A DNA stretch of 64,000 nt, from contig CALVSW010000004.1 in the NCBI GenBank assembly GCA_944359625.1, positions 30,000 through 93,999 of the forward strand, written 5' to 3'. Origin of the DNA: an uncultured Bacilli bacterium. Lineage in GTDB: Bacteria > Bacillota_I > Bacilli_A > RF39 > UBA660. Below are positions 9,715 to 48,199 of the stretch, piece after piece (the first letter of the stretch is position 1; each line of letters begins with the position of its first letter). A model generated the notes under the pieces. The model did no database searches and was not told where the DNA came from. It was given only the letters and a program-made list of their open reading frames with translations. The translations under genes and the position numbers were made by a program.

Positions 9715-9721
9715 GTGTATT

Positions 9722-17107: not shown

Positions 17108-17145
17108 ATATTTATTTTGTTATAATCTAAATAGAGGTGAACAAA

Positions 17146-33523: not shown

Positions 33524-36082
33524 TTAATAGTCATCATCACCAAAGAAATCATCAAAGAATTCATCATCAGATATTATATTATTATTAACAACAACAGAAT
33601 CAACATCAACATTAATCTTTGGTTTATCTTCTTTTTTGCTTTCAATAACCAAATTATCATTCGTTACTGGAGTAGTCTTTATTTCTGTTTTTGGTACTTC
33701 ATCTAGAACTTCGACATCCTCTGCATCTTTTTCTGAAGATAAATCATTATAACTTGGAAGCTCATAGTTGGTATCAATAGATACTTTTATTGGTTCACTC
33801 TTATTTATTTCTGGTTTTATAAGCTTAGGATTTTCTTTTGGAGTAACCTCTTTTTCCTTTATAATTTCAGGAATCTCTTCAGTAATCTTAGGTTCTTCCT
33901 CTACCTTCTTTTGTTCTGGTTGCTCAATAGGAATTTCTTTTTCAATAGGTTTTATGTCTTCCTTAGGTTTAGAATCTAATTTAGATGTATCTAATTTCAT
34001 AGTCATACCTAAGTAATCATCGATATTTGGCTTTTTAACACTATCTTCTAAATTCTTTAAAGCAGCTTCCGTCATGGCTTTACTATCAGGAATTTTATTA
34101 TTTAAATTTTCTTTTTGACGAGCTTCTTCAGCATCTAATTCCGCAATTTTTTTATCAATATCACGCATCATCGCATCTAAATCTATTTTATTACTTCCGC
34201 CAAAAGGATTGGAAGTTTCTGGTTTAGTTGGTGTACTTTGAAATGGATTAGATGTTGCAAATGGATTATTTGATGCAAAAGGATTAAATGGCATATCAAA
34301 AGGATTACCACCAAAGCCTGGATTTGAACCGAAAGGACTATTTCCAAAATTAGCCATACTTTTTTCTTTCTTCTTTTCATTAACAAAACCTTTGATATCA
34401 AATAAAGCTACAGGTTTAGCAGCTCTTTGTGGAAAAGATGCATCGCTTGCTTGATAGCCCCAATCGACCTTATCATTGAAAGGTAACTTTGTTTTAAATG
34501 GACTCTTTCGAATACGCATTAATATCGCTTCACCAAACTTTAATTTTTGTAAATCTGTTACCGTTACTAAAGGTGTAGAAGCTGTTTTATCTTTTTCTTT
34601 AGATTTTACTTCACCACACATTTTACTAATTTCTTCTAAAGCAGCAAGTTCGGTAGATATTAAATAAATTGTATTACCACAGTTACCACGAATTACTTCC
34701 GCTACTTCTTTACCATAAACATCATTTAATTGGGCAAAGTTTTGAATAATAAATGTAAAGCGCATTTGTCTACTACGGGCAGCAGTTACCATTGAATCAA
34801 CATCTTTTAATGGTGGCATGTTAGCAAACTCATCTAAAATGAAGTTAGTTCTAATTGGTAATTTACCACCATTTTCTTGGGCAACATCAATTAGTGTTTC
34901 ATAACATTGTTTAATAAAAATAGTAGCTAATGCATGATAAGTAGTTTTTTCATCATGAACAACTATAAATACAGCAGTTTTTTCACGGCCAATATCTAAG
35001 ATACTAAAATCACTATGACCTAACATCTCTGATAAATTTTCACGAGATGCAAATAAACGTATTTTTTGTCTAAAAGTTGAAACTATACCACCTTTAGTAT
35101 CACTTGGAGCATTAATTGTTCCTGATGCAAAAGTGTAGGCACTTGAAGATTCACCTTTTAATAAGAAATATTCTTTAGCATAGTTAGAAGCTCCTAATCT
35201 TTCTTCACCAATCGTAGCCATTAAACTAATAGAATTAATATTTATTTCTTCTTCTTTAGCATCTTGAAATAGTCCTAAAGCTAAACCAGAAAAGTAATCA
35301 GCTGCAGATTTTTCCCAGAATGGTTCGCCCTTATTATTAGCATCATACAAAATATTTAAAGCAACATCATCTAATAATTCAGTAGCTTTATCCATATTTC
35401 CCATCTTGTAATATTGATATGGTAAGGTCAAAGGATTCCAAGCATTACCTTTTAATGGATCACGAAAATTTAAAATAATTACTTTGTAGCCTAATTCTTT
35501 TAATTTATTAGCAGCAGCAACATATAACTCACCCTTAGGGTCAGTTATAATCATAGATTCACCCTTTTTTGCTAACAAATTAACCATCGGTTTAACTACA
35601 CAACGTGATTTACCAGAACCAGAAGAACCAATTACTAAAGTATGATATTCACCATTATCAACCCACATTTCATTATTTTTACCTGTACATAAAGGAACAC
35701 CAGCAGCATTTAATGTTGCATCAGTAGTAATTACTTTAGCGACATCTCTATCAGTTTTAATATCTTTATCTTTAGCCCAACTAGAATAGCCTTTTTCTTC
35801 TTTTTCTTTAACTATAATACCTAATCCTTTTTTTTCTCTTTCAAAAACATAAGAAGATACAGAAGAGAAAATCATAATTAGTGCTAGAAAAAATAAAAGT
35901 AACGTTATTGGTAAATAAACACCTGAAAAAGCAGGAATAGGATTTAAACCCCATAATCTTCCTTCAGCACCAAAATTAATAAAATTTAAAACACTGATTG
36001 CACATAAATATAATAAAAATAAGCAAAATATCACAAATATAATTAAATCTTTAGAAGTTATTCTAAATTTCATTAACAACAC
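33524..36082 (-). CDS. Type IV secretion coupling protein (VirD4/TraG/TcpA/PcfC-like ATPase)
   Basis: N-terminal TM helices, Walker A VIGSSGSGKSR, Walker B FILDEFANMP. Long low-complexity acidic/proline C-terminal tail. Confidence 0.8.
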   Translation of the reverse strand: MLLMKFRITSKDLIIFVIFCLFLLYLCAISVLNFINFGAEGRLWGLNPIPAFSGVYLPITLLLFFLALIMIFSSVSSYVFEREKKGLGIIVKEKEEKGYSSWAKDKDIKTDRDVAKVITTDATLNAAGVPLCTGKNNEMWVDNGEYHTLVIGSSGSGKSRCVVKPMVNLLAKKGESMIITDPKGELYVAAANKLKELGYKVIILNFRDPLKGNAWNPLTLPYQYYKMGNMDKATELLDDVALNILYDANNKGEPFWEKSAADYFSGLALGLFQDAKEEEININSISLMATIGEERLGASNYAKEYFLLKGESSSAYTFASGTINAPSDTKGGIVSTFRQKIRLFASRENLSEMLGHSDFSILDIGREKTAVFIVVHDEKTTYHALATIFIKQCYETLIDVAQENGGKLPIRTNFILDEFANMPPLKDVDSMVTAARSRQMRFTFIIQNFAQLNDVYGKEVAEVIRGNCGNTIYLISTELAALEEISKMCGEVKSKEKDKTASTPLVTVTDLQKLKFGEAILMRIRKSPFKTKLPFNDKVDWGYQASDASFPQRAAKPVALFDIKGFVNEKKKEKSMANFGNSPFGSNPGFGGNPFDMPFNPFASNNPFATSNPFQSTPTKPETSNPFGGSNKIDLDAMMRDIDKKIAELDAEEARQKENLNNKIPDSKAMTEAALKNLEDSVKKPNIDDYLGMTMKLDTSKLDSKPKEDIKPIEKEIPIEQPEQKKVEEEPKITEEIPEIIKEKEVTPKENPKLIKPEINKSEPIKVSIDTNYELPSYNDLSSEKDAEDVEVLDEVPKTEIKTTPVTNDNLVIESKKEDKPKINVDVDSVVVNNNIISDDEFFDDFFGDDDY

Positions 36083-36864: not shown

Positions 36865-39237
36865 TCACCCACACAATCCTGGTAAATATGTTAATGGATC
36901 TACTCGACTTCCATTTACAAACACTTCAAAATGCAAATGGTTTCCAGTAGCAGCACCAGTTTGACCTACATAACCGATTAAAGTGCCCGCAGTAACTGTA
37001 GAACCAATTTGTAAATCTGAAGGCTTTATCATATGAGCATAGAGAGTTTCAATCCCATTATTTCCAGCTATTCGAACATAATACCCATAACCATCAGAAT
37101 CATTACCATTTATCGTAACTGTACCATCATGTGCAGCATATATTGGTGTATTAGCTGGTCTAGCTATGTCGATGCCATTATGATTTTTTTGAACACCACT
37201 TATTGGATGAACACGATTGCCATACATCGAAGAACAATTACCCGTAGTTTCTAATGGATACATTAATCCATACGAATTAACTTCCCCATTTAAATTATAA
37301 TTCTTTAAACTTGAAGATAATACTGCATTATCATAATAGAAATTTAATATTTCATTATAAAGTTTTCCTTGTACGGTTGACATATAATAAGCACCATACT
37401 GACTCATTCCACGGCCATGACCACCATCACCATCAGTTCCACAAGGATGTTCTAAATACGATGTTCCACTCCATTTTGGAACATTTTCATAAGCCCAAGC
37501 AATTGGTATAGCTTGATGTTTTTGGGCTAAATAATAGTTAGTGCTATCTTTAGATTCATAGCAAAAAGCATCATATTCAGTTGAAACTAAATTACCGGCA
37601 CCATCAGTCATTATTTGACCAGTAGTTTGCGATACAGCATCAATAATTTGTTGATTAGTTGTTGGACGGAATGCTTGCGTATTAGTACTACTTGTAATAT
37701 AGCATACACCATCAGTATTTTGCGATCTTGTAAATAAATACGTACGTGCTGCTACAGAGAAAGCTTTAAAAGTTTCAGTATCTTGAAATCCTCCTACTTC
37801 ATGGCTAATAACACCAGCTACATAATCATCTAAAGTATAAGTTCCCATGTAATCACCAGATGTAACAGTAACATTATCACAGCCATTAACATCTACATAT
37901 GATAGTTCTGGAGAAGGCTGATACATATCACAAATTGGAAATATTTCAAATGGCTCTAATTCTAATTTTTCTACTTTAAATAATTTTTTAATAGTTTCAT
38001 CATAGTTAGTTCCCTGATTCAAAGCACTTAAGTCTAATTCTATTTTAGGAGCATAACCGATAATTATCTCACTTTTACCTAAAGATACAGCATTAGTAAT
38101 ATTATCTTGACTATCATCTGTTGATTCAGTATTATTTTCAGGAATATTTAATAAAGTATATTTATTGGTATCTTTTAATGTACAAGTACTTTCACCACTA
38201 TTAATAGACGAATTAATTAATAAATCAGAATTTACTACCACTCCTAAAGCATGATAATCTTCAGCATTACTAGTATATGAGCCAAAATAATAATTAACAG
38301 CACCTGCTAAATATTCATCAATTGTATAAGTACCTGCAGAGGGACCATCTGGTATAATAACGGTATTACAAGTAGGATTATTAACACAGTTAACATCAGC
38401 ATCTTCATTATAATCATAAATGTTATTTGAAACTATTCCAGATATTATAAAAATTATAATTAATAAAGCAAGTATTATTACTATAAATAACATAATAAAT
38501 GGGATTAAGGGAGCAATAACAGAAAGTGTTAACTTAAATGAAGTAGATCTTCCTAATAATATATTTTTTGTAAATTTTTTATTTTCATTTGTAGGTTCAT
38601 CATTATTATCAGATTTTTCTTTTTGAGATTCATTATTACTTTTAGAATTTTTATCTTTTAAAGGTTCTGAACTATCATCTTGTTTATCATCAAAACTTTC
38701 TTCTTCTGGTAAAGAATCTATAGTTTGATTAAACTTATTTTGTATATTTTTGCCATAATTCTTTATTTTATTTCTAGTTTTTCCTACCAAAGAAGCAGCT
38801 GTTCCTAACATTCCTAATTTGCTTTTAGGATTTAAAATGTTAGATAATTTTTCTTTATTTTCTTTTGTTTCTTCACTTACTTTTGGTGAACTATTTTTGC
38901 TTTCTTTTTCGTCTTCATTTACTTTTGGTATAGTGTCTTTATTTTCTTTTTCTAAAGATTTTTTTTGTGATTTATTAAGTGCTTTCCCACCATTTTCAAG
39001 CATTTTATCAACAGCTGGATTATCTAAAGTTTTTTTTACAGCCTGTCCTGCTGCAGCTCCAGCAGGTCCTCCAATTGCACCACCAATTACTGGAGCAGCA
39101 TTTTTTATTACTTTACGCCCAAGCTTTGATTGCAAACCTTTACTAGCTAAATTGCCAACCATATTTTTATTATAGGAAATCGGTTGCTTTGGATTTTGCT
39201 GAGGTTCTGTAGAAGAGTTCTTTTTTTCTTCGTCCAT
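36865..39237 (-). CDS. Bifunctional cell-wall hydrolase: SpoIID/LytB-like lytic transglycosylase domain plus C-terminal M23 (LytM) peptidase; functional VirB1 analogue
   Basis: GGHGRGMSQYGAYYMS is the SpoIID-family signature. C-terminus HNGIDIA...GNHLHFEV is the M23 HxxxD/HxH motif. Long charged cytoplasmic N-tail and one TM, as in PrgK/TcpG-type T4SS hydrolases. Confidence 0.75.
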   Translation of the reverse strand: MDEEKKNSSTEPQQNPKQPISYNKNMVGNLASKGLQSKLGRKVIKNAAPVIGGAIGGPAGAAAGQAVKKTLDNPAVDKMLENGGKALNKSQKKSLEKENKDTIPKVNEDEKESKNSSPKVSEETKENKEKLSNILNPKSKLGMLGTAASLVGKTRNKIKNYGKNIQNKFNQTIDSLPEEESFDDKQDDSSEPLKDKNSKSNNESQKEKSDNNDEPTNENKKFTKNILLGRSTSFKLTLSVIAPLIPFIMLFIVIILALLIIIFIISGIVSNNIYDYNEDADVNCVNNPTCNTVIIPDGPSAGTYTIDEYLAGAVNYYFGSYTSNAEDYHALGVVVNSDLLINSSINSGESTCTLKDTNKYTLLNIPENNTESTDDSQDNITNAVSLGKSEIIIGYAPKIELDLSALNQGTNYDETIKKLFKVEKLELEPFEIFPICDMYQPSPELSYVDVNGCDNVTVTSGDYMGTYTLDDYVAGVISHEVGGFQDTETFKAFSVAARTYLFTRSQNTDGVCYITSSTNTQAFRPTTNQQIIDAVSQTTGQIMTDGAGNLVSTEYDAFCYESKDSTNYYLAQKHQAIPIAWAYENVPKWSGTSYLEHPCGTDGDGGHGRGMSQYGAYYMSTVQGKLYNEILNFYYDNAVLSSSLKNYNLNGEVNSYGLMYPLETTGNCSSMYGNRVHPISGVQKNHNGIDIARPANTPIYAAHDGTVTINGNDSDGYGYYVRIAGNNGIETLYAHMIKPSDLQIGSTVTAGTLIGYVGQTGAATGNHLHFEVFVNGSRVDPLTYLPGLCG

Positions 39238-39283
39238 AAAAACACCACCATCACTATGTAAATTTTATCATAAAATAGTGGTT

Positions 39284-39312
39284 AAAAAAAGTCTAAACAT
39301 TAATTTAGACTT
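39284..39312 (-). terminator. Internal hairpin/terminator between the VirB4 and hydrolase genes
   Basis: Minus strand reads AAGTCTAAA-ttaatg-TTTAGACTT followed by TTTTTT. Confidence 0.45.
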
Positions 39313-39315
39313 ATT

Positions 39316-41103
39316 CTAAAATCCACCACCAGTTCCAAAAGAATCTAACTCTTCTTGAGTACATATTACATAAATTTGCATTCTTCTAGAACCACAAATA
39401 AATAATCCTTGGCCTTGATTATAATACTTAATATTATTCATTTCAGCTTCGGTTAAATCAATCAAACTTGACAAATCATCTACAGCTTGCTTTTTTAATC
39501 CCATTACCAAATAATAAGAGGCATTATCAAATATTGCTTTACCATGCATAATTAAATTTGGAGAAGCAAAGTCAGTAGGTTGTTGAGTAATAATAATTGT
39601 CCCACTATTATATTTACGAGATCTTCTTTGAATTTGAGCTAAAAATTCAGCACCTAATTCATTATGAGAGGATAATAAAACATGAGCTTCATCAACACTC
39701 AACACTGAAGTTACTGTTTTATCCAAACATAAACCCCAAGCATATTTTAAGATATTGAAAAATATTGCATTACGAATATTTTCATCGCTATTCATTAATT
39801 CACGAATATTAAAAACCACAAAATCACTTTGAATATTTAAAGTTGTATGACCATTAAAGTAATAACGAAGTTCCCTAGTAAATGGTCTAATTTTAAGTTC
39901 TAATCTTTCTAAAATATCTTTTTCCCTAGTTTTTTCAGGAATAGAAAGTAATCTACCTCTAATTGTAGCATATACATCATCAAATGTTGGATAATCTTGA
40001 CTAGTAAGGCGTGAAAAATCAGTATCATAATCTATTTTAAATCTTTTATAAGTATCTTGAGCAATTTCACTAAACATTGTTAAAACATCTTCTTCAATAT
40101 CTGGTGAATAATATTTCAAGAAAGCTTTTAAAGATTGTAAAGCTCTTGTTAAGACCGTATAACCTAATCCTTGAGCTAAATCTTCTTCATCAGCATCAGC
40201 AACGACTTCAAGGGGATTTATCATCCCAAATTCGCCACCTTTTCCTAAATCTAGAAAATCACCATCTAAAAATTTAGCCATTTCTTCGAGTTCACCTTCA
40301 GGATCAATAGCAATTACCTTATAACCATTACGAATATGAGATCTTAAAAGTAATTTGCTTGCTGTTGATTTACCACTACCAGATGTACCTAAAATTATCA
40401 TATTAGCATTGTTTCGATTATGTTCTTTTTTAATTTGATAAAGAAATTGATTAAATAAAACAACTCCACCAGAATAATCAACACCTAATAAAGTAGAATT
40501 TCCAATATCTTTAACACTATCAAATATAAATGGATACATAGCCGCAATTGTAGGAGAAGGAATTGGCGTACCAATTCTTTCTTCTAAATCTTGTTTAGGA
40601 AATATTGGTAAAATAGATTTTAAAACTTTTTCTTGTTCAAACATTAAAGGTATACCACGCATTCCCATAGCGTCTAAGAAACTCAAAAGATTAACTTTTT
40701 TACTTTCCAAATCTTCCTTAGAATCCGCAACTACCATCAAATGTAATTGAAAATCAAATATTCTTGATTGTGTTGCTGCTAACATCTGGACAAATTGTTC
40801 TAAAGATTCATAATCTTGTCTAATTCTTTCTTGAATAGTACGATCATTTTCATTTTGATATCTTTGTTTCAAATCAGCAATTTCTTTATTAATCATCTTA
40901 CTCATTGTACTAAATTCAATTGGAATATGCTTAGCAACTACTTTAACACCATTAATATTACTTAAATCTGATAAATAACCCGGAGATATATATTTAGGAT
41001 AACTTATAATCGTATAAATTGTACAATATTTACCACTCATAATAAAATCAGTAATATTATACTTCATTCCTTTAGGAGCTAATTCACTTTTTAAATTCAA
41101 CAT
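39316..41103 (-). CDS. VirB4-family T4SS ATPase (TcpF/PrgJ/Orf16-like)
   Basis: Walker A ILGTSGSGKST, Walker B SVDEAH, about 600 aa. This is the Gram-positive VirB4 architecture. Confidence 0.85.
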   Translation of the reverse strand: MLNLKSELAPKGMKYNITDFIMSGKYCTIYTIISYPKYISPGYLSDLSNINGVKVVAKHIPIEFSTMSKMINKEIADLKQRYQNENDRTIQERIRQDYESLEQFVQMLAATQSRIFDFQLHLMVVADSKEDLESKKVNLLSFLDAMGMRGIPLMFEQEKVLKSILPIFPKQDLEERIGTPIPSPTIAAMYPFIFDSVKDIGNSTLLGVDYSGGVVLFNQFLYQIKKEHNRNNANMIILGTSGSGKSTASKLLLRSHIRNGYKVIAIDPEGELEEMAKFLDGDFLDLGKGGEFGMINPLEVVADADEEDLAQGLGYTVLTRALQSLKAFLKYYSPDIEEDVLTMFSEIAQDTYKRFKIDYDTDFSRLTSQDYPTFDDVYATIRGRLLSIPEKTREKDILERLELKIRPFTRELRYYFNGHTTLNIQSDFVVFNIRELMNSDENIRNAIFFNILKYAWGLCLDKTVTSVLSVDEAHVLLSSHNELGAEFLAQIQRRSRKYNSGTIIITQQPTDFASPNLIMHGKAIFDNASYYLVMGLKKQAVDDLSSLIDLTEAEMNNIKYYNQGQGLFICGSRRMQIYVICTQEELDSFGTGGGF

Positions 41104-41675
41104 TAAATCATCACCGTCCCAAAATTAGTACTAACGCCACCATTTAAGAAATTATCTAATATCATTCTTAAATCACCATTAGAGACTTGCATTGAATTTA
41201 ATCCACAATTTGCTAAGCCCGTAATTAATATTCTCAATCTTTTTTGAATTATATCGATTCTTTTTTCTTTAAAAAGGATAAAGTATTCGGTATCAACAAC
41301 ATTGTACTCAGCACCCATAAAAGCATTTGCTTTATTAATATCTTGCATTATTAATTTGCGAGTAATATTACTATTTGATTTTTGATATAAAACTTGTAAT
41401 TGCGCTAAATAAGGAGCAATATCTACTGGGCGATCCGCTATTATTAGCCAAAATTCAAAATCAATAGTATTATAAAAATTTCGTAATTGAGTAATAATAT
41501 TATTTTGAGAACCAGTGTCCATTATGAATATATTGCGTGGCTGAATTTTTACACCACAAACAAAATTACCATCCTCTAACTGAATCATCCCATTAACAAT
41601 ATTTTTAACAGGTAACCAGTCCTCACAATACTTATAATTATTTTCATTCTTCTCTATCTTTGCCGTAGACATCTT
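41103..41675 (-). CDS. Hypothetical T4SS operon protein (~190 aa)
   Basis: ORF between the VirB3-like and VirB4 genes. Likely start at internal Met (MSTAKIEKNEN); the longer ORF-track version overlaps the upstream gene by 76 nt. Confidence 0.4.
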   Translation of the reverse strand, partial: KMSTAKIEKNENNYKYCEDWLPVKNIVNGMIQLEDGNFVCGVKIQPRNIFIMDTGSQNNIITQLRNFYNTIDFEFWLIIADRPVDIAPYLAQLQVLYQKSNSNITRKLIMQDINKANAFMGAEYNVVDTEYFILFKEKRIDIIQKRLRILITGLANCGLNSMQVSNGDLRMILDNFLNGGVSTNFGTVMI

Positions 41676-41973
41676 TAACACACCAGCCTTTCCAAATATA
41701 TTCTCTAGGATTTTTTGCACTATAATAATTTAATACGTTACCAATAAATGTCATAACATTATGATAATTAGGTACTGGCATTACTAAAAATAATGAAATT
41801 AATAAAGGTAAACATAATAAAATTATTTGATTAATATTATTAGCATTAATCATTATTAATAATAAAAGGGTAACACCTGCACCAGTACCAAATACAGCCA
41901 AATCAATTGGAGTAAAAAAGCCAAATATTAACTTAGACTTTTTACTATTTGCCGGGATTAAAAAGTTTCGCAT
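41644..41973 (-). CDS. VirB3/TcpE/PrgI-like small two-TM T4SS protein
   Basis: 109 aa, two hydrophobic helices, immediately upstream of VirB4, which is the canonical position. Confidence 0.55.
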   Translation of the reverse strand: MRNFLIPANSKKSKLIFGFFTPIDLAVFGTGAGVTLLLLIMINANNINQIILLCLPLLISLFLVMPVPNYHNVMTFIGNVLNYYSAKNPREYIWKGWCVKDVYGKDREE

Positions 41974-41988
41974 AAACTCCTCCTTATT

Positions 41989-44181
41989 CTACTTTTTATT
42001 AGCATCTTTTTTAACTTGTTCAAAACGTAATGATGTTGCCATCTTACCAGCACTAGAGCTAATTTTCTTCGCAGCAGTGCTAACTACATCTGATCCATCA
42101 AAGCCTTGACCATTTTCAATCATTTTAACCAAACTATCAATTCCTTTATCGCTAACAAGATCTTCTATTTGAGCAAAATCACTACCACTCATAGTTTTTT
42201 GTAAAGCATAGGCAACTAAACTACGATTTGCCGCAATTGACTGAGCATAATTTTCTAAATTATGTTTCATTGCTACATCACCTTTAGCAACAAGATCTTT
42301 AATTACTTCAGCACGTTTTGCAGATTTTCTAGAATCCCATTCTTTTTGTAAATTTTTAATTCTATCTTGCTTAGCATCAATAGTATTTTTACTCATTTGA
42401 TCTAACTCAAGTTTTAATTTATTTTCTTCATCTAATAATGGATTTAAACGAGCAGCTTTTTCAGAATCACTCATTGTTACGGAATTACGAATATTATCCA
42501 TTTGAGATTGTAAATTTTTCAATTTGCTATTCGCATTATTAATATCATCTTGTGAATAAGTACGAGATTCTTTAATTCTAGATATTTCGCCTTCATAAGT
42601 AGCATTTAACGCTTTTATGCCATCGTTTTTATCAGCAGCATCATTAATAGCATCCATATATTTTTTTATCTTATCCAATATATCAGCCTTAGCATTTTGA
42701 CTACTCTTCCCAGATCCATGTGCCCATTCATCAATTGAAGTTCCAATATCGCCAACATGACCTTTAACTACACCAGACAAATTACCGCCATGAGTATTAC
42801 GATAGTATTCTCTTTTAATTCTTGCTGAAGCAACATCGTTTGCTGCTCTACTAGTATTACTTGCTAAATCGTGATAATTTTTAGAGCCTTTATTAGCGGT
42901 AAAACCACGAGCTAAACCACTTCCAGCACCTGCTAAAGCACTTAAACCTTTAGAAAATTTGCTTCCTTCTTTATTAAGTGCATTTTGAACAGCTCCGGTA
43001 GTAGCAGCACCCATTGCACCCATTGCTTGAAACATTCCAGATTCAGCAAGTTTGTCTTTAACGCCTAATTTAAACCCTTTACTATCTAAACCTGTAACTT
43101 CTGATACAAATTTTGGTGCTGTTTTAATAAACCAGAATAAACCAACTATTGTAGCAGCTTTAACTAATAGAAAAACAACTCCACCAATTTCACCACAATA
43201 TACACCACCAGTGCCAAAGAAAGTATCATAGACACTATCAAGGGTACGCATAATGTAAGCAACGAATACTACAACAAATAAACGCGTAAATACTTCAATA
43301 AAACAGCTAATTGTCTTTTTTAGCCAATTAGAAAATACTTTCTTTTGACCTGGAATAATTATCGTTAAAATTGGTAATGGCGCTATTACTTGTAGGTACG
43401 ATAGTTTAACTGCTCGTAAAGCCATATCTAAACATAATGAAGCTAAAACATAAACACAAAATCCTCCAGCAATTGTCGATATTATAAATACATACCCAAT
43501 TTCTTCATCTACTACTGCATCTGAAAATTTTCTTAAAGCAGAAAATGGAGCACCAGCCTCAATTTCAGCATAAGCTTGTTCTAAAGTCTTACAATCTGCA
43601 CCATCACAATCATTTTCATATATGTGAGAAGCAGCACCTCCAGTTTGCGAAATATCAACAGGTTCACCGTTTTCGTCAAGAGGATAGAAAAATGATTTAA
43701 AAAGCAAAGTTGCCATTTGAGCACCAATTTGATTTGGTTCCTCACTATTAACATCAAAGCCGTCGCTATACGAATTTCCTAATATCAACTTAGGAATAAC
43801 ATTACCGCACAAAATAGCATGTTGGACATCGTACATTACATTAAAAGCAGATGGAACAATCGCAATACCAATAATTGCTAATGCAATATTTGGTACAACC
43901 TTACCTAAAGAATGCTCTTTATTATTACTATCAGGATTAATTATAGCTAATAATAAAGCATAAGCAACTAAAAATAATGCAACTACGCCAATTATAATAT
44001 AAATTCTTTGAGATAAGTCATTTAAATCTTGATTACTAAATATTCTAATTTGACTTATAGCTAAAAAAGTTTGATATGCTAAATTCACTAACCAATAAAC
44101 AAATGTATCTATAAATAAAAATATATGTGTCAATACTCTTTCAATTAAATCACCTATTGGTCCTAATATTGCCTGGGCCAT
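41989..44181 (-). CDS. VirB6/TrbL-like polytopic T4SS channel protein with C-terminal coiled-coil/low-complexity extension
   Basis: Six or more TM helices in the N-terminal 400 aa, then a long hydrophilic coiled-coil region. Position relative to VirB3/VirB4 matches PrgH/TcpH/Orf15. Confidence 0.6.
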   Translation of the reverse strand: MAQAILGPIGDLIERVLTHIFLFIDTFVYWLVNLAYQTFLAISQIRIFSNQDLNDLSQRIYIIIGVVALFLVAYALLLAIINPDSNNKEHSLGKVVPNIALAIIGIAIVPSAFNVMYDVQHAILCGNVIPKLILGNSYSDGFDVNSEEPNQIGAQMATLLFKSFFYPLDENGEPVDISQTGGAASHIYENDCDGADCKTLEQAYAEIEAGAPFSALRKFSDAVVDEEIGYVFIISTIAGGFCVYVLASLCLDMALRAVKLSYLQVIAPLPILTIIIPGQKKVFSNWLKKTISCFIEVFTRLFVVVFVAYIMRTLDSVYDTFFGTGGVYCGEIGGVVFLLVKAATIVGLFWFIKTAPKFVSEVTGLDSKGFKLGVKDKLAESGMFQAMGAMGAATTGAVQNALNKEGSKFSKGLSALAGAGSGLARGFTANKGSKNYHDLASNTSRAANDVASARIKREYYRNTHGGNLSGVVKGHVGDIGTSIDEWAHGSGKSSQNAKADILDKIKKYMDAINDAADKNDGIKALNATYEGEISRIKESRTYSQDDINNANSKLKNLQSQMDNIRNSVTMSDSEKAARLNPLLDEENKLKLELDQMSKNTIDAKQDRIKNLQKEWDSRKSAKRAEVIKDLVAKGDVAMKHNLENYAQSIAANRSLVAYALQKTMSGSDFAQIEDLVSDKGIDSLVKMIENGQGFDGSDVVSTAAKKISSSAGKMATSLRFEQVKKDANKK

Positions 44182-44192
44182 GACTATCCCTC

Positions 44193-45107
44193 CTAACTAA
44201 TACCACATACTCCATAAATTCCAACTAGTTTAAAAGTCCAATCTAGCAAACTTGGTATAATAAATAACATTATTGCATAAATTAACCTTTTTAAAGTTTT
44301 AACTCCTAATTTAGTTAATTCATCATTTTTACCATTTGCTAATACTTTTATTAAATCAACAATTGTCATCACAACAACTAAAATTGGCCCTGCAAACTTA
44401 ATTATTTCCAATAATTTAGCTAAATAATAGCCTAGATATTCTGGGTCATCATAGTCACCTAAAACGTAGTCACATGTTAATGAGCCATTATTATTAGACG
44501 AATTATTACTTTCATCATCGCCAGCCTCGTTCCACCAGTAATCCTTATCTTCTGTTGTTACATGGACAATTTTTGTACCATTACCAGCGCCAACTGTAAC
44601 ATTTGCAGAACAATTTGGTGCTATCGCATGAAGCGTACAAGAATAAGTACCAGCAATTGAAGAAGCCGTAGAAGAATTTGCTGAAACACAACTTGGATTA
44701 TCAGAAACACATGTTGCTGAACCACTTTGATAAGAAGTACTATCTTCTAATTTCATAGTAATATCAATTTCTTCTGAAGGAGTAACAGGTTCTGCTTGAC
44801 TAGGATCACCAACTGTAACGTTAATAACCCTTGAACTTGTACCACCACCAATTGTTACCGTAGAATTACAATTATCACCAATAGCAACAAAAGTGCAATG
44901 ATAAAGTCCAGATTGATTCGTATAACTTTCACTAGCAGAAACACACATAGGGTTAGAAGATTTACAACCAGATAAATTAGAATTAATAATGTGGTTCTGT
45001 CCTTTAGACATTGTCATTTCTTCTGCATACGTCAAATAGTGACAAGAAAAAATGGCTACAAAAATAAATAAAAAAGAAAAGATAACATGTTTAATATTCT
45101 TTTTCAT
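44193..45107 (-). CDS. Secreted Cys-rich two-repeat ectodomain fused to a VirB2/TrbC-like C-terminal membrane hairpin
   Basis: Signal peptide (MKKNIKHVIFSFLFIFVAIFS). Two ~60-aa Cys-rich repeats (...NPMCVSASESYTNQSGLYHCT... / ...NPSCVSANSSTASSIAGTYSCT...). C-terminal FAGPILVVVMTIVDLIKVLANGK...IYAIMLFIIPSLL hairpin resembles TrbC/VirB2 pilins. Confidence 0.5.
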   Translation of the reverse strand: MKKNIKHVIFSFLFIFVAIFSCHYLTYAEEMTMSKGQNHIINSNLSGCKSSNPMCVSASESYTNQSGLYHCTFVAIGDNCNSTVTIGGGTSSRVINVTVGDPSQAEPVTPSEEIDITMKLEDSTSYQSGSATCVSDNPSCVSANSSTASSIAGTYSCTLHAIAPNCSANVTVGAGNGTKIVHVTTEDKDYWWNEAGDDESNNSSNNNGSLTCDYVLGDYDDPEYLGYYLAKLLEIIKFAGPILVVVMTIVDLIKVLANGKNDELTKLGVKTLKRLIYAIMLFIIPSLLDWTFKLVGIYGVCGIS

Positions 45108-45168
45108 TAAGCCACCTCTAACAAAAAAATTATAACATAAAAAAAGTAATATTTGCAAAAAATATTAC

Positions 45169-45495
45169 CTATAAATACAAATATGACTTACAGTCAATCC
45201 ATCCTCTAGCATTAGTATCACCAGTTTCAGCAACGGTCTCCATAATTAAGCCAACGATAGATGGAATAAAGAATATCAATACAGCAGCAAGCGCACGGAA
45301 AGCAAAACTTTTAATATTTTTAGTAATTTCTTCTGGTTTTCCAGCTACAACACTTTTACCAACATCTAACATACCAAATAAAATTAATAAAATAGGAATA
45401 ATAATTTTAACAGCCGTTATAAGCATTCCTAACAAATTTAAAAATGGCTTTAACTCACCACATACAGTAGCTGGTGATAAACTCATTAATAACAT
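45169..45495 (-). CDS. VirB2/TrbC-like pilin-family small membrane protein
   Basis: Helix, loop and helix arrangement ITAVKIIIPILLILFGMLDVGKSVVAGKPEE ... AAVLIFFIPSIVGLI, as in Firmicute TrbC/VirB2-family proteins. Confidence 0.45.
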   Translation of the reverse strand: MLLMSLSPATVCGELKPFLNLLGMLITAVKIIIPILLILFGMLDVGKSVVAGKPEEITKNIKSFAFRALAAVLIFFIPSIVGLIMETVAETGDTNARGWIDCKSYLYL

Positions 45496-45558
45496 ATAGC
45501 AAACATCTCCTTCATCTAGCTTTATTTTAATATAAAATAATTAATATTGTCAAGAAAA

Positions 45559-46614
45559 TTACTCATCCTTTACAATGCCAAATATCTTTCCTACAGGTTT
45601 TTTGATACCACCAACCGGTTCTTGACGATCAAAACCCAACTTATATAATAAATCATTTAAAATTGGATTTTGATCTTTTTTGTCATCTAAAGGTGGAATA
45701 GATTCAAACACTTTACAACGAGATTCATATTCAAATTCAGAAACATCCTTAGAACTTAATAAACATTTATTTAAAACTATCTTATATTTTTTCATCTTAG
45801 TTAATACCGTACGATCAGTTCTAATTAATTTATTTAATTTAATAGTAGTTGGTTCAATTAAATGAATCACTTCTTTTATAGAAGCAACTTTAGGAGAAGA
45901 ATTAATGTCAACTAATATTATTTCATAATTACTATTAGGATTTTTAATAATTGAATCAACCTCACCAGTTGAGCAAGTACGTAAATCAGGATCATTAAAA
46001 TAAACAAAATCATTTTTATCGACTTCTAGGGCTAAAACTTTATAATTTCTTTCTAATTGTTTTTTTAACATATAAACCAAGGTAGTAGCCCCAGCATGCT
46101 CCGTAACATTTTTAAAAGCTATAACTCGAGAACCCATAAACACTTTATTAATTGAATCATTAAAAAAGTTAGAATTTACATTACCAACGTTTAAATTAAT
46201 ATTTAAATTATTTTGATTATTAGTACCATTATCGCCAATAATATGATATTGAGCTACATCTTTATAAGTATTAGGATTATTAATTAAGTATTCAATTGAA
46301 TCAATATTACGTGTAAAATTATATATTCCCATCGATACTAATCCAGATAAATAACTAGGTGAATTAACCTCAGGCGAATCATCTAAAAGAACAATAACTT
46401 TATTCATATCAAGTCCTGAGGCTAATTTTTGAATTGTAGCAATATTTTTATAACCGATAACAGCCGTAATATCTAAAATCATTTTATTAAAAAAGAAGTT
46501 TTCAAAATTAGCAATTATTACTTCCGGCTCATATTCACCACGAACATTTTTAATTATATCGATATTTAAATTAGTTAACATTTCACTATATCGATTAGAA
46601 ATTATAACATTCAT
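45559..46614 (-). CDS. ParA/MinD-fold protein with degenerate Walker A (TadZ/CpaE-like pseudo-ATPase?) and N-terminal receiver-like domain
   Basis: RVIAFKNVTEHAGATTLVYML occupies the deviant Walker A position (consensus KGGVGKTT) but lacks the Lys. Overall size and architecture resemble TadZ. Confidence 0.4.
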   Translation of the reverse strand: MNVIISNRYSEMLTNLNIDIIKNVRGEYEPEVIIANFENFFFNKMILDITAVIGYKNIATIQKLASGLDMNKVIVLLDDSPEVNSPSYLSGLVSMGIYNFTRNIDSIEYLINNPNTYKDVAQYHIIGDNGTNNQNNLNINLNVGNVNSNFFNDSINKVFMGSRVIAFKNVTEHAGATTLVYMLKKQLERNYKVLALEVDKNDFVYFNDPDLRTCSTGEVDSIIKNPNSNYEIILVDINSSPKVASIKEVIHLIEPTTIKLNKLIRTDRTVLTKMKKYKIVLNKCLLSSKDVSEFEYESRCKVFESIPPLDDKKDQNPILNDLLYKLGFDRQEPVGGIKKPVGKIFGIVKDE

Positions 46615-46626
46615 ATATCCGTCCTC

Positions 46627-47127
46627 CTAAACACCAAATAAGTCTTGGTCATATGTTGCGTCTAATTCAGTTGTACTTCCTGTTGCTCTAAAGGTAAATA
46701 ATTGCCCTAATACAGGTAAATCTAAATTAAAAAACAAAACAACATTATAATAACTTTTAACTTTAGTACCTGTAAAAGTTACTTTTTGAACACAATAATA
46801 ATATTTCTTATTATTATTGTTATCAACATATTCAAAAGCACTTGGAGTAAAATCATCTAAGCGTACTGCCCCATAATAGCCTGCAGTACATGCACCTTTT
46901 GAATGATATCCAGAAGCTAATAAATAATTATTAACTATACCTATCCCTTTTAAACCACCACTAGTTAATCCCTCATATTTTTCAATTATACTTACTACTT
47001 CATTTTTAGACTTAAAAGCCTTAGCATAATTAGTCATAATAGCTAAGTAGGAAGCAAATATTAGAATAAATGCAATTACTAGTTGAAATATCCAAGTCGT
47101 ACCTATTGTTTCTCTCATACTGAACAA
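46627..47127 (-). CDS. Prepilin/pseudopilin-like protein (166 aa) with conserved [KR]E[AST]xG N-terminus
   Basis: MFSMRETIGTTWIFQLVIAFILIFASYLAI: charged leader, Gly, then about 20 hydrophobic residues. Paralogue of 47115-47591. Confidence 0.45.
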   Translation of the reverse strand: MFSMRETIGTTWIFQLVIAFILIFASYLAIMTNYAKAFKSKNEVVSIIEKYEGLTSGGLKGIGIVNNYLLASGYHSKGACTAGYYGAVRLDDFTPSAFEYVDNNNNKKYYYCVQKVTFTGTKVKSYYNVVLFFNLDLPVLGQLFTFRATGSTTELDATYDQDLFGV

Positions 47128-47591
47128 CTCCCCCCATTAACAGGATAATAAAGAGTTTTAGTCGTTCCACTTAAACTAAAATTAAATACATTATTTATAA
47201 TTGGTAAGTCTAAAGAGAAAAAGACTTTAACCTTATAATAACTAGCATTAGGAAATTGTTTATAAGGATCATTTAAATTAACATTTATATTTACACATTT
47301 AATACAATAATTAGCTTTAGTTTGACTACGACCACCAGATAAAGTATATCCTATACCATCTTCTTCATCACAGCTTCCTAATGAACGATAACTAACTTCA
47401 TTTAAATGCCCTGCTATTTCATCTATTGTAGAACCATCAACACCATTATGTCTTTGAATAATATTTACTAATTCATTTTTTACGTTATAAGCCTTAGTTT
47501 GATTAACTGAAATACATAAATAACCAGAAAAAAGAATTATTAAAGTAACAAATATCGTAGTTATACTTAATGCTCCAAACGACTCTTTCAT
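47115..47591 (-). CDS. Prepilin/pseudopilin-like protein (158 aa) with conserved [KR]E[AST]xG N-terminus
   Basis: MKESFGALSITTIFVTLIILFSGYLCI: same architecture as the neighbouring paralogue. Confidence 0.45.
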   Translation of the reverse strand: MKESFGALSITTIFVTLIILFSGYLCISVNQTKAYNVKNELVNIIQRHNGVDGSTIDEIAGHLNEVSYRSLGSCDEEDGIGYTLSGGRSQTKANYCIKCVNINVNLNDPYKQFPNASYYKVKVFFSLDLPIINNVFNFSLSGTTKTLYYPVNGGSCSV

Positions 47592-47597
47592 ACTATA

Positions 47598-47831
47598 CTA
47601 ACCTTTCCACGGACACATAATAGTATCATTATTATCCCCATAGTGACAAACAACCATCTTGCATCCACTTGAATCTGTACACTTTTCACACCAAGCATCA
47701 CTACACTTACTATTTTGATCCATATTCTTTTTTAGCATTGGCCAAATAACCATGTAGAAAAAAGCCACTAGGATACTAACAGCTATAACAACAATAACAG
47801 TCGAATTTAATTCCCCAGTAGCTTCTTTCAT
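47598..47831 (-). CDS. Small Cys-rich pilin-like protein (77 aa)
   Basis: MKEATGELNSTVIVVIAVSILVAFFYMVIWP followed by a 6-Cys C-terminal domain. N-terminus near-identical to the 83-aa paralogue. Confidence 0.5.
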   Translation of the reverse strand: MKEATGELNSTVIVVIAVSILVAFFYMVIWPMLKKNMDQNSKCSDAWCEKCTDSSGCKMVVCHYGDNNDTIMCPWKG

Positions 47832-47874
47832 CTTTTATCTTCTTTCTATATAATTATATCTTTTTTCTATATAA

Positions 47875-48126
47875 TTACTTGTTGCTTACTCCACTTTGAT
47901 TTGGGCAAGTTATTTTTTCAGTTGAAATAGTTCCATCGTCTTCATAGTAACTACATTGACATGTATCACCATCACATGTGCAATTAACTGAATTAGCACA
48001 TCTAGTACTTTGCTGAATACTTCCTTGAATTGCTGGCCATACAAAAGCATAGAAGAATGCACCAATAGCAGCAATAGCAACTACTGTAACTACAGTCATA
48101 TTTAATTCACCTGTTGCTTCTTTCAT
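47875..48126 (-). CDS. Small Cys-rich pilin-like protein (83 aa)
   Basis: MKEATGELNMTVVTVVAIAAIGAFFYAFVWP followed by a 6-Cys C-terminal domain. Confidence 0.5.
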   Translation of the reverse strand: MKEATGELNMTVVTVVAIAAIGAFFYAFVWPAIQGSIQQSTRCANSVNCTCDGDTCQCSYYEDDGTISTEKITCPNQSGVSNK

Positions 48127-48199
48127 TTAATAATCTCCTCTCCTTATCGTATGATTTTATTATATAATTTTTTTTAGCTATAAGCAAGAATTATTTATT

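Follow-up and report, generated by a model that had tools for sequence, protein, structure and literature searches.

We identified two adjacent genes on the minus strand of the analyzed stretch of DNA (64,000 nucleotides, hereafter the window), which we interpret, with moderate confidence, as encoding pilin-type subunits of a chromosomally encoded monoderm T4SS. In the best reading of the data, the pair consists of a small core subunit and a modular, strain-variable, adhesin-bearing subunit of this system, in which the filament is putative. Sequence comparison assigns both proteins to the two-helix hairpins of the PF18895 (T4SS_pilin) family, at scores that are sub-threshold for the window proteins themselves. 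Both are predicted by the models to be N-out/C-out, with a basic cytoplasmic loop and a conserved Cys on each extracytoplasmic flank. In the second paralog, one or two Ig-like domains are located between the signal peptide and the hairpin.

The smaller gene (45169..45495, minus strand) encodes a pilin-like protein of 108 aa, as judged from the ORF and its RBS, a PF18895 match, an AF2 model, and hydropathy. The start ATG lies 9 nt past a GGAG motif. The hydropathy profile places transmembrane segments at residues 21–39 and 68–86, with a loop of net charge +2 between them; the basic loop is GKSVVAGKPEEITKNIKS. The AF2 model (pLDDT 84) shows a hairpin of helices H16–51 and H54–91. No signal peptide was found in the 108-aa protein. 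Its short N-terminal tail contains Cys12 and its C-terminal tail Cys102, and both residues are invariant in the family alignment A2. This paralog, which lacks an ectodomain, is 58–89% conserved across genera.

The larger gene (44193..45107, minus strand) encodes a modular pilin-like protein of 304 aa, in which a signal peptide is followed by two Ig-like domains, a linker of low complexity, and a pilin-type hairpin at the C-terminus. Its ATG at 45107 is preceded by AGAGGTGG; the program-made ORF list starts this ORF at an upstream TTG, giving 321 aa. A preliminary description of this DNA had reported the two ORFs, with 305 aa for the larger product. Both are real on the minus strand, the length was essentially right, and the fused layout that it gave, a signal peptide followed by two repeats and a hairpin, was correct.

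All parts of the 304-aa protein are encoded on the minus strand. The signal peptide (aa 1–28; 45024..45107) has a hydrophobic segment at residues 8–26, an n-region charge of +3, and an AF2 helix at residues 3–21. Cleavage likely occurs after the conserved YA|EE, with family-wide conservation of A28, E29, and E30. Ig-like domain 1 (aa 29–100; 44808..45023) is modeled with seven strands at a pLDDT of about 77, and its four Cys residues (C48, C55, C71, and C80) are invariant in alignment A1. Ig-like domain 2 (aa 112–186, the extent of the AF2 strands; 44550..44774) contains C133, C140, C157, and C166, and corresponds to the repeat missing in the 220-aa relatives. It is followed by a disordered linker rich in Asn, Ser, and acidic residues (aa 187–224; 44436..44549), which carries the conserved Cys212 and drops below a pLDDT of 50 at residues 190–213. 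The C-terminal hairpin (aa 225–304; 44196..44435) is formed by helices H225–258 and H262–295, with Cys301 near the C-terminus. By hydropathy, the ectodomain behind the signal-peptide-like segment is acidic (net −18), and TM1 (235–253) and TM2 (279–297) are separated by a basic loop (254–278, net +4).

Each pilin gene has a promoter-like site on the minus strand in the gap upstream of it. The site of the small gene (45524..45553; TTGACA, 18-nt spacer, TAAAAT) matches at 11 of 12 positions, and that of the large gene (45129..45158; TTGCAA, 18-nt spacer, TG-TATAAT) at 10 of 12. Both constitute weak evidence, because this AT-rich region yielded 40 such sites when 29 were expected.

The two Cys-rich repeats of the 304-aa protein are 37% identical over 73 aa (E = 6e-14) and contain four Cys each. 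The preliminary description was right about these repeats but put their length at ~60 aa, when it is about 75 aa. The structure prediction that it proposed for the ectodomain yielded two seven-strand beta-sandwich domains (AF2, pLDDT 75–82), and Foldseek retrieved tandem Ig-like structures (pIgR, titin, LigA, and SbsC; E 3e-7 to 3e-5). The models thus indicate that the repeats fold as tandem Ig-like beta-sandwiches, for which we take the Big_2-type bacterial Ig-like domains as a comparison. No Pfam Ig-like family matched the ectodomain, its sole Pfam match being a chance-level one to Phage_spike_2 (E = 0.097).

The hairpins of the two proteins are paralogous (BLASTP, 33% identity over 60 aa, E = 5e-7), and K30, P34, E56, A71, F75, I77, and P78 do not vary in any of 30 members drawn from the two paralog families. 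Each hairpin consists of two long, strongly hydrophobic helices joined by a basic loop; polar residues at the edges of the membrane are conserved, and both termini are predicted to lie outside (AF2, hydropathy, and charge). A six-frame HMM scan of the window detected exactly two copies (E = 1.6e-48 and 8.6e-39; next best E = 0.028), and revealed neither a third hairpin nor a pilin-like N-terminus in the VirB6-like protein, an idea raised in PMC9905601.

PF18895 is the only Pfam family matched by the hairpins. The 108-aa protein scored 23.9 bits (E = 4.3e-5, profile positions 10–71 of 71) and the last 95 aa of the large protein 15.6 bits (E = 0.017), both below the gathering cut-off of 26.6 bits. 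Among the relatives, 20 of 21 match PF18895 as their best family (best E = 1.5e-6), and many close relatives already carry it as a precomputed annotation. The preliminary description had called the hairpins TrbC/VirB2-like. Their T4SS-associated, pilin-type character is upheld by PF18895 and by adjacency to the T4SS core genes VirB6, VirB3, and VirB4, but the link to TrbC/VirB2 proper is not: the proposed search with PF04956 (TrbC/VirB2) gave no match to the window proteins (hmmscan, E up to 0.1 or 10) or to the 21 relatives. An hhalign comparison of A2 with A4, an alignment of eight annotated plasmid VirB2/TrbC proteins, returned a probability of 0.3% and E = 0.18, identical to the negative control A5; the sensitivity of this comparison is limited because both alignments are shallow (Neff 2–3). 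As PF04956 and the classic VirB2 profile fail to match, the basis for the designation "VirB2-like" is PF18895, together with topology and gene position. An NCBIfam scan of both proteins and 30 relatives found no pilin-like or other credible family. The hairpin alone draws spurious weak matches to helical membrane families (GPCR transmembrane pairs, MamI, and msc), and the only PDB matches to its profile in the sequence search, the GPCR transmembrane pairs, were at chance level and were rejected.

The hairpin profile matches 10,150 protein clusters (E <= 0.001), and a second, word-indexed search with the family alignment added almost nothing. Among the best 150 representatives of these clusters, 74 are at least 180 aa long, and the hairpin is C-terminal in 64 of these; nearly all 74 have a signal-peptide-like N-terminus and a Cys before the hairpin. 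Of 105 representative members, 104 carry the Cys pair on the two sides of the hairpin. One N-terminal ectodomain in the family is a GDSL esterase. No name for the family appeared in the literature and databases searched.

The pilin genes are part of a larger minus-strand cluster. Immediately downstream is a gene for a VirB6-like polytopic membrane protein of 730 aa (41989..44181), whose NCBIfam matches, MMCAP2_0566 (E = 9.4e-10) and the Mbov_0396 ICE transmembrane protein (E = 3e-8), are both below the curated cut-offs. It is followed by a VirB3/PrgI/TcpE-like small membrane protein of 109 aa (41644..41973; Pfam TcpE, E = 7e-4, and PrgI on an orthologue), and by a VirB4 (39316..41720) split into a TraC-like N-terminal ORF (41103–41720) and a 595-aa P-loop ATPase (39316–41103). 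The split is the same in all related loci, and its identity in all lineages marks it as ancestral, as opposed to the product of a frameshift. Further downstream are a 790-aa cell-wall hydrolase with SpoIID and Peptidase_M23 domains, of VirB1/PrgK-type role (36865..39237), and an 852-aa VirD4-type coupling protein (33524..36082; T4SS-DNA_transf, E = 1.4e-52). The preliminary description had placed the system in MPF-FA; the machinery is closer to Mycoplasma-ICE and PrgI/TraC-like systems (MPF-FATA-type) and not demonstrably MPF-FA. No VirB5, VirB7, VirB9, or VirB10 was found. Upstream, the conserved cluster continues with a 351-aa protein and four small proteins of 166, 158, 77, and 83 aa (45559..48126). 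The four small proteins share the start M[KR]E[AST]xG, behind which lies a hydrophobic helix. The 351-aa protein has no PDB, Pfam, or NCBIfam relative, and a TadZ/ParA-like identity, suspected from its sequence, gained no supporting family match.

All related loci examined keep the gene order pilin, pilin, VirB6-like, VirB3-like, VirB4, hydrolase, VirD4, and the synteny of the pilin genes with VirB6-like, PrgI-like, and VirB4 genes extends over at least five chromosomal contexts. The position of the cluster on the chromosome differs between lineages. In 10 further metagenomic contigs of the window's species, it lies between the same neighboring genes, one contig having a gap where the others have the VirB6-like gene call. 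The window yielded no match to a relaxase or integrase family (54 ORFs scanned, including 53 of the 55 of at least 100 aa; cut-offs 1e-4 to 0.1), and no lysis or bacteriocin genes were found near the hairpin genes. Plasmids gave no match by megablast with the 7-kb pilin region or by tblastn with both pilin proteins, and phages gave no tblastn match to the large pilin, indicating that the cluster corresponds to no known plasmid or phage element. It is a chromosomal cluster of an uncultured gut Bacilli bacterium, and not an evident conjugative element. The host carries the sporulation genes SpoVAD, SpoIID, Ddl, and Mur ligase. The literature searched contained nothing relevant on T4SS or pilins in RFN20/RF39-type gut Bacilli.

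The ectodomain of the large protein is variable in both repeat number and sequence. The window protein has two Ig repeats, the relatives P0016–P0018 have one, and a 130-aa protein of Coprobacillus sp. CAG:605 has none, consisting of a signal peptide and the hairpin. The sister-species loci L007 and L008, from two strains, have unrelated two-repeat ectodomains. Between these two loci, TrmD and the small pilin are 100% identical and VirB4 is 99% identical, while the large pilins share 25% identity in the ectodomain and 62% in the hairpin. Among 11 strains of the window's species, diversity is highest at the large pilin gene. The pN/pS of the ectodomain is 0.21, as against 0.00–0.07 in other T4SS genes, and the hairpin of the large pilin shows zero nonsynonymous differences. 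The most polymorphic stretch of the gene is the linker (nucleotide diversity pi = 0.145 at aa 191–211). The ectodomain is the fastest-evolving part of the cluster, and the hairpin is almost invariant. Strict positive selection on the ectodomain (pN/pS above 1) was not found, the value being 0.21. VirB4 remains 88–97% identical across genera.

These observations might also be explained if the hairpins were resident membrane subunits of the translocation channel that are never extruded. The large protein would then be a surface adhesin or receptor-binding protein, anchored by a T4SS-docking hairpin and taking the place of wall-anchored adhesins like PrgB of other Gram-positive systems. We consider this explanation a serious possibility, albeit one that we do not expect to hold. 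Monoderm T4SSs have been described as pilus-less and adhesin-dependent (PMC4027160 and PMC12102498), and the long, strongly hydrophobic helices with polar residues conserved at the membrane boundaries would suit resident subunits. The modeled Ig domains and the flexible linker of ~40 aa could reach through or along the wall, and variability of the kind seen in the ectodomain is typical of adhesins. The GDSL esterase found elsewhere in place of an adhesin-like domain likewise fits a generic anchor at the machine. However, such an anchor needs neither a second, ectodomain-free paralog conserved at 58–89% across genera nor a family-wide Cys pair around the hairpin. The Pfam-level likeness to the pilin arrays of Patescibacteria (PMC12102498) is also superfluous to it. 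In addition, the strong promoter-like site of each pilin gene is a weak, sequence-based hint of high, structural-subunit-like expression.

Two further explanations deny the pair a part in a working secretion system. The spurious matches of the isolated hairpin to many helical membrane families and the sub-threshold PF18895 scores would be compatible with proteins unrelated to secretion, such as a holin-like, bacteriocin-immunity, or other small membrane pair beside T4SS genes. This is the least probable explanation, given the tight T4SS synteny in every locus examined, the rank of PF18895 as best family for nearly all relatives, and the lack of lysis or bacteriocin genes nearby. It is hardly less improbable that the pair belongs to a degenerate, no longer functional remnant of an integrated conjugative element. 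The differing chromosomal positions between lineages, the two VirB4 ORFs, and the lack of a detected relaxase or integrase in the window point in that direction. Against it, the core genes are all intact and under strong purifying selection, VirB4 is highly conserved across genera in its ancestral split form, and the flanking genes are the same in the 10 further contigs, including the one with the gap at the VirB6-like gene.

If the two proteins are pilin-type subunits, as we prefer, the hairpins would enter the membrane via Sec in the case of the large protein and without a signal peptide in the case of the small one. The adjacent VirB6-like, VirB3-like, and VirB4 machinery would recruit them, and they might assemble as a short conduit or fiber across the peptidoglycan, opened by the SpoIID/M23 hydrolase. 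The small protein would serve as the bulk subunit and the large one as a minor or distal subunit. The minor role is an assumption, because a VirB2-type helix would leave little steric room for a 160-aa N-terminal load on every subunit, by estimate and not by computation. The N-terminal Ig-like domains of the large subunit would point away from the cell and act in a strain-specific way, as an adhesin or as a recognition module. The tip or adhesin pilin role given to this protein in the preliminary description is plausible. The flanking Cys pair may staple the hairpin ends, in a topological analogy to head-to-tail cyclised VirB2/TrbC, or may cross-link neighboring subunits. Against our reading, no PF18895 protein has to our knowledge been shown to form a pilus, and pili are described as absent from monoderm conjugation systems (PMC9905601 and PMC4027160). 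Similarity to PF04956 and to the eight annotated VirB2/TrbC proteins was undetectable, the PF18895 scores of the window proteins lie below the gathering cut-off, and the pN/pS of the ectodomain, although raised, is below 1. We regard as possible, although unlikely, the full proposition, in which a plain subunit and a modular subunit with exchangeable, strain-specific Ig-like (elsewhere enzymatic) domains make up a VirB2-type T4SS fiber of a walled, Gram-positive gut bacterium.

The classic VirB2/TrbC pilins (PF04956; A. tumefaciens VirB2 and RP4 TrbC) resemble the hairpins described here in their two hydrophobic helices, short basic loop, and predicted N-out/C-out topology, and in a gene position a little upstream of genes of the virB3 and virB4 types. 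The orthologue with no repeats, in which a long signal peptide leads directly into the hairpin, is similar to VirB2, and the hairpin ends may be joined in both cases, by the Cys pair here and by cyclisation there. In contrast, sequence or profile similarity is undetectable, a signal peptide is missing from the small paralog, and the helices exceed those of the classic pilins in length. In addition, the pilin genes are separated from the virB3-like gene by one for a VirB6-like protein, and VirB5, VirB7, VirB9, and VirB10 counterparts were not found. In modular type IV pilins of Gram-positive bacteria (such as Streptococcus sanguinis PilB and PilC) and in two-domain tip adhesins (FimH), a pilin module is fused to a surface-exposed adhesion module. 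These would share a design principle with the large protein, namely a polymerization module joined to a functional module beside a plain major subunit. They belong to type IV pili or chaperone-usher systems and not to T4SSs, and their functional module is C-terminal or lectin-like, so the resemblance is an analogy only.

A close parallel is offered by the T4SS on the chromosome of Patescibacteria/CPR, with its VirB2-like pilin arrays of family PF18895 (PMC12102498, and Wang et al. 2023, cited in PMC12857230). The arrays and the present pair share the Pfam family, tandem divergent paralogs beside VirB6-, VirB3/PrgI-, and VirB4-type genes, a monoderm host, a chromosomal site, and no relaxase detected nearby. 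Variation in pilin copies is interpreted there as adaptation to partners (PMC12857230 and PMC12102498). Unlike the CPR epibionts, the host here is a walled Bacilli bacterium with sporulation genes, and it has just two paralogs, along with a VirB1-type hydrolase and VirD4. One of the paralogs carries inserted Ig-like domains, a fusion unmentioned in the passages of PMC12857230 and PMC12102498 that were searched. The Bartonella Trw T4SS, with its variable multicopy TrwL (VirB2) and TrwJ (VirB5), is likewise a case in which T4SS surface subunits diversify, apparently for different partners, and the ATPase core is conserved (PMC12857230). That system is diderm and of PF04956 type, and it diversifies by gene amplification, as opposed to an inserted ectodomain and allelic replacement here. 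As for the Mycoplasma ICE T4SS, its families Mbov_0396, Mbov_0397, and MMCAP2_0566 are the best NCBIfam matches of the VirB6-like and VirB4 N-terminal proteins; these matches fall well short of the curated cut-offs, and the present cluster shows no ICE hallmarks.

Pili have been called absent from monoderm conjugation systems (PMC9905601 and PMC4027160), and according to reviews and comparative studies VirB2-type pilins are missing from Gram-positive T4SSs, the only recent exception being Patescibacteria (PMC4027160, PMC9905601, and PMC12857230). These sources bear out the preliminary description, which called pilus-like components atypical for Firmicute systems. The study of Patescibacteria (PMC12102498) leaves the origin of their pilins open between an MPF-FATA ancestor and co-option from elsewhere, because pilins are thought to be absent from MPF-FATA. 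The occurrence of the same Pfam pilin family in a FATA-like T4SS on a Bacilli chromosome bears directly on this question. If the full proposition of a fiber built from a plain and a modular subunit is true, T4SS pilins among monoderms are not confined to Patescibacteria, and modular T4SS pilins would be a large unrecognized class, with 10,150 clusters and an ectodomain in about half of the best 150 representatives. Since the hairpin family is large and carries no name in the sources consulted, a dedicated profile would annotate thousands of metagenomic proteins. The chromosomal location, the lack of a relaxase found nearby, and the purifying selection on the core would then point to cell-cell recognition or exchange, and not to classical plasmid conjugation. 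With its signal peptide, conserved hairpin, and ectodomains that can be swapped, the modular protein would provide a concrete handle on partner recognition by monoderm T4SSs.

Two adjacent genes on the minus strand (44193-45495) encode the proteins that we term the small and large pilins, a label that here rests on genes and models, with the filament being putative. The small pilin gene (45169-45495) encodes 108 aa from an ATG located 9 nt after GGAG. The large pilin gene encodes 304 aa from an ATG at 45107, preceded by AGAGGTGG; the mechanical ORF list extends it to a TTG further upstream. The small pilin aligned with residues 229-287 of the large pilin (33% identity, E = 5e-7), and K30, P34, E56, A71, F75, I77, and P78 (small-protein numbering) were invariant across both paralog families (30 members). 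Based on hydropathy and charge, the small pilin is predicted to contain two TM segments (21-39 and 68-86) with a loop charge of +2 and no signal peptide, and the large pilin a signal-peptide-like segment (8-26, n-region +3) and an acidic 208-aa ectodomain (net -18). In the large pilin, the ectodomain is followed by TM1 (235-253), a basic loop (254-278, +4), TM2 (279-297), and a 7-aa tail. The two ectodomain repeats share 37% identity over 73 aa (E = 6e-14) with four Cys apiece, and a six-frame scan of the window with the family HMM returned exactly two copies, corresponding to the two pilins. These agreeing results confirmed the preliminary description of two hairpin genes, one with tandem Cys-rich repeats; its sole correction is the repeat length, about 75 aa rather than the claimed ~60 aa.

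By sequence comparison, PF18895 (Pfam T4SS_pilin) appears to be the only credible family for both hairpins. The small pilin scored 23.9 bits (E = 4.3e-5), below the cut-off of 26.6, and the last 95 aa of the large pilin scored 15.6 bits (E = 0.017). PF18895 was matched by 20 of 21 relatives (best E = 1.5e-6), and many relatives carry a precomputed PF18895 annotation. The PF04956 (TrbC/VirB2) HMM search proposed in the preliminary description was negative for both window proteins and the 21 relatives. An hhalign comparison of the window family with eight alphaproteobacterial plasmid proteins annotated as VirB2/TrbC (Prob 0.3%, E = 0.18) gave the same result as the negative control, the neighbouring VirB3/PrgI-like proteins. 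Classic VirB2 homology was thus not demonstrable with the PF04956 HMM or against these eight proteins, and the designation "VirB2-like" is based on PF18895 together with the topology and the position of the genes. In passages of PMC12102498, PF18895 is pooled with VirB2 homologues.

When 1.84 billion representative proteins were scored with a profile built from both paralogs, it matched 10,150 clusters at E ≤ 0.001 and 5,606 at E ≤ 1e-10. Among the best 150 of the 10,150 clusters, 74 members were at least 180 aa long; 64 of these carried the hairpin at the C-terminal end, and nearly all of the 74 had a signal-peptide-like N-terminus and a Cys before the hairpin. In one related protein (P0114), a GDSL esterase sits behind a signal peptide and is joined to the hairpin by a linker, and another (P0081) carries two hairpin modules within a single 483-aa protein. 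Of 105 representatives in which TM motifs could be recognised, 104 have Cys on both sides of the hairpin, ahead of TM1 and behind TM2; the hairpin core of these 105 contains 0.3% Cys. No source gave a name for proteins of the hairpin family.

The AlphaFold2 model of the large pilin, built from a 13-sequence alignment (mean pLDDT 68, pTM 0.30), showed a signal helix (3-21), two seven-strand β-sandwiches (28-99 and 112-186, pLDDT about 75-82), a disordered Asn/Ser/acidic linker (190-213), and a helical hairpin (H225-258 and H262-295). Foldseek searches against the PDB matched tandem Ig-like domains (E = 3e-7 to 3e-5), including those of pIgR, titin, Leptospira LigA, and the S-layer protein SbsC. 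These matches indicate that the Cys-rich repeats are, as modelled, Ig-like domains; no Pfam Ig family matched them by sequence. In its confident model (pLDDT 84), the small pilin forms one long hairpin (H16-51 and H54-91) flanked by short helices.

The T4SS cluster runs on the minus strand from 48126 down to 33524. Four small proteins (83, 77, 158, and 166 aa; 46627-48126) come first in transcription order. Their N-termini are prepilin-leader-like (M[KR]E[AST]xG, then ~20 hydrophobic residues), and all four are kept in every related cluster; the two shortest have Cys-rich tails, the 158-aa and 166-aa proteins had no family match, and no prepilin peptidase was seen near these ORFs. A 351-aa protein follows (45559-46614), with no relative in Pfam, NCBIfam, or PDB. 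It is 76-96% identical across genera, the best-conserved cluster gene except for the two VirB4 halves, and, judged by its sequence, it may have a degenerate fold of the ParA/MinD type, preceded by a receiver-like N-domain. The pilin genes are followed by a 730-aa VirB6-like protein (best NCBIfam matches, the Mycoplasma ICE families MMCAP2_0566 and Mbov_0396), a 109-aa protein matching TcpE/PrgI (VirB3-like), a split VirB4 (39316-41720; a TraC-like ORF and a 595-aa ATPase), a 790-aa hydrolase with SpoIID and M23 domain matches, a 249-aa protein, and finally VirD4 (852 aa). The VirB4 split, into a TraC-like ORF of ~190-205 aa and an ATPase of 594-595 aa, recurs in five related loci (L001, L005, L007, L010, and L012). 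A frameshift was ruled out because the junction is identical in all lineages, indicating a stable gene arrangement.

Housekeeping genes flank the cluster, encoding a YqeG-like HAD phosphatase, RsgA-type GTPase, MutL, MiaA, Mur ligase, Ddl, sigma factor, SpoVAD, ScpA, and ScpB, among others, on one side, and a metallophosphoesterase, SDR, GH3, and LCP-PASTA protein on the other. The window (GC content about 24%) is from the chromosome of a walled gut member of the Bacilli carrying sporulation genes. Relaxase and integrase families had no matches among the 54 ORFs scanned, including 53 of the 55 window ORFs of at least 100 aa. Plasmids yielded no match to the 7-kb pilin region or either pilin protein, and phages none to the large pilin. 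Elsewhere in the window, a 521-aa protein ending in a sortase domain precedes a 1008-aa ORF without a Pfam match (8149-12748, plus strand), and GC drops to 13.7% at 10001-12000; the product of the 1008-aa ORF could be the substrate of a sortase or a surface protein of low complexity. At 56751-62215 (plus strand), two large neighbouring ORFs of 884 and 909 aa had no Pfam match at E ≤ 0.001. Two Fic-domain proteins are encoded at 608-1585 (minus strand) and 17137-18213 (plus strand), one fused to a RhuM-family domain.

The cassette of pilin gene(s), VirB6-like, PrgI-like, TraC-like, VirB4, and hydrolase genes was seen in five or more distinct chromosomal contexts. The second paralog is built of modules, with 0, 1, or 2 Ig repeats among relatives. 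That of Coprobacillus sp. CAG:605 (130 aa) has a signal peptide and hairpin with no ectodomain, the classic VirB2 layout; the 220-aa forms P0016-P0018 have one repeat, the window protein has two, and those of a sister species (L007 and L008) have two of unrelated sequence. In L010, the VirB6-like gene comes after a run of three genes lacking annotation (213, 263, and 209 aa), the 213-aa product being a pilin-family protein. A PP2C and a PASTA kinase directly follow the hydrolase there, so VirD4 appears to be missing from this cluster.

Compared with the nearest species, identity was 97% for VirB4, 96% for the 351-aa protein, 89% for the small pilin, and 75% for VirB6; within the large pilin it was 81% for the hairpin and 56% for the ectodomain. 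L007 and L008 belong to one species (TrmD 100%, RimM 99%, VirB4 99%, small pilin 100%), whereas their large pilins are 36% identical overall (ectodomain 25%, hairpin 62%). The VirB6-like proteins (44%; L007 11464-13830, L008 11573-13876), hydrolases (64%; L007 16558-19341, L008 16607-19315), and 91/86-aa leader-type proteins (47%) are nearly as divergent, and the variable genes of the cluster thus differ together. Among 11 strains of the window's species (window 39169-51495 and L013-L022), nucleotide diversity peaked at the large pilin (π = 0.021); broken down by region of this gene, the linker had 0.145, the Ig domains 0.017-0.021, and the hairpin 0.0007. The pN/pS ratio was 0.21 for its ectodomain versus 0.00-0.07 in the other T4SS genes. 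This pattern is characteristic of a conserved assembly module that bears a surface-exposed module facing partners or predators. In the same strains, pS of the T4SS genes (0.03-0.07) was 20-50 times that of the upstream SDR and 381-aa genes (0.001-0.002), and synonymous diversity peaked around the large pilin, VirB6, and VirB3, a pattern suggestive of either balancing selection or import by recombination at the locus.

The family, predicted topology, fold, synteny, modularity, and evolutionary pattern are directly supported, and on balance we lean towards both proteins being pilin-type subunits of a monoderm T4SS. Both hairpins would insert N-out and C-out, and the adjacent VirB6/VirB3/VirB4 machinery would recruit them. 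They would span the wall, opened by the SpoIID/M23 hydrolase, as a short fibre or a conduit. The small pilin would be the bulk subunit and the large pilin a minor or distal one, whose Ig-like domains would point outward and act as a strain-specific adhesin. The two Cys residues on either side of the hairpin could staple its ends or cross-link subunits; stapled ends would topologically resemble cyclised VirB2/TrbC. The main rival, which we regard as possible and less probable, holds that the hairpins stay in the membrane permanently and that the large pilin serves as an adhesin docked at the secretion machinery. A decayed ICE remnant is improbable, and a function unrelated to secretion slightly more so; both fit poorly with the synteny and the purifying selection.

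Guglielmini et al. state, in a passage of PMC4027160, that there are "no homologs to T4SS pilins in MPF_FATA", and a 2025 nomenclature review names Patescibacteria as the one exception in its corresponding passage (PMC12857230). A passage of a Patescibacteria study (PMC12102498) does not decide between an ancestral origin and co-option of their VirB2-like pilins, "given their absence in MPF_FATA". The Patescibacteria pilins in that passage and the window pilins share PF18895, the latter in a Bacilli T4SS whose remaining components are similar to those of Mycoplasma ICEs and to PrgI/TraC-like ones. The locus is not categorically new, as PF18895 pilin arrays beside monoderm T4SS genes have already been described; the passages of these three papers do not mention the modular pilin architecture. 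The window locus places PF18895 pilins in a Bacilli T4SS and adds this modular architecture.
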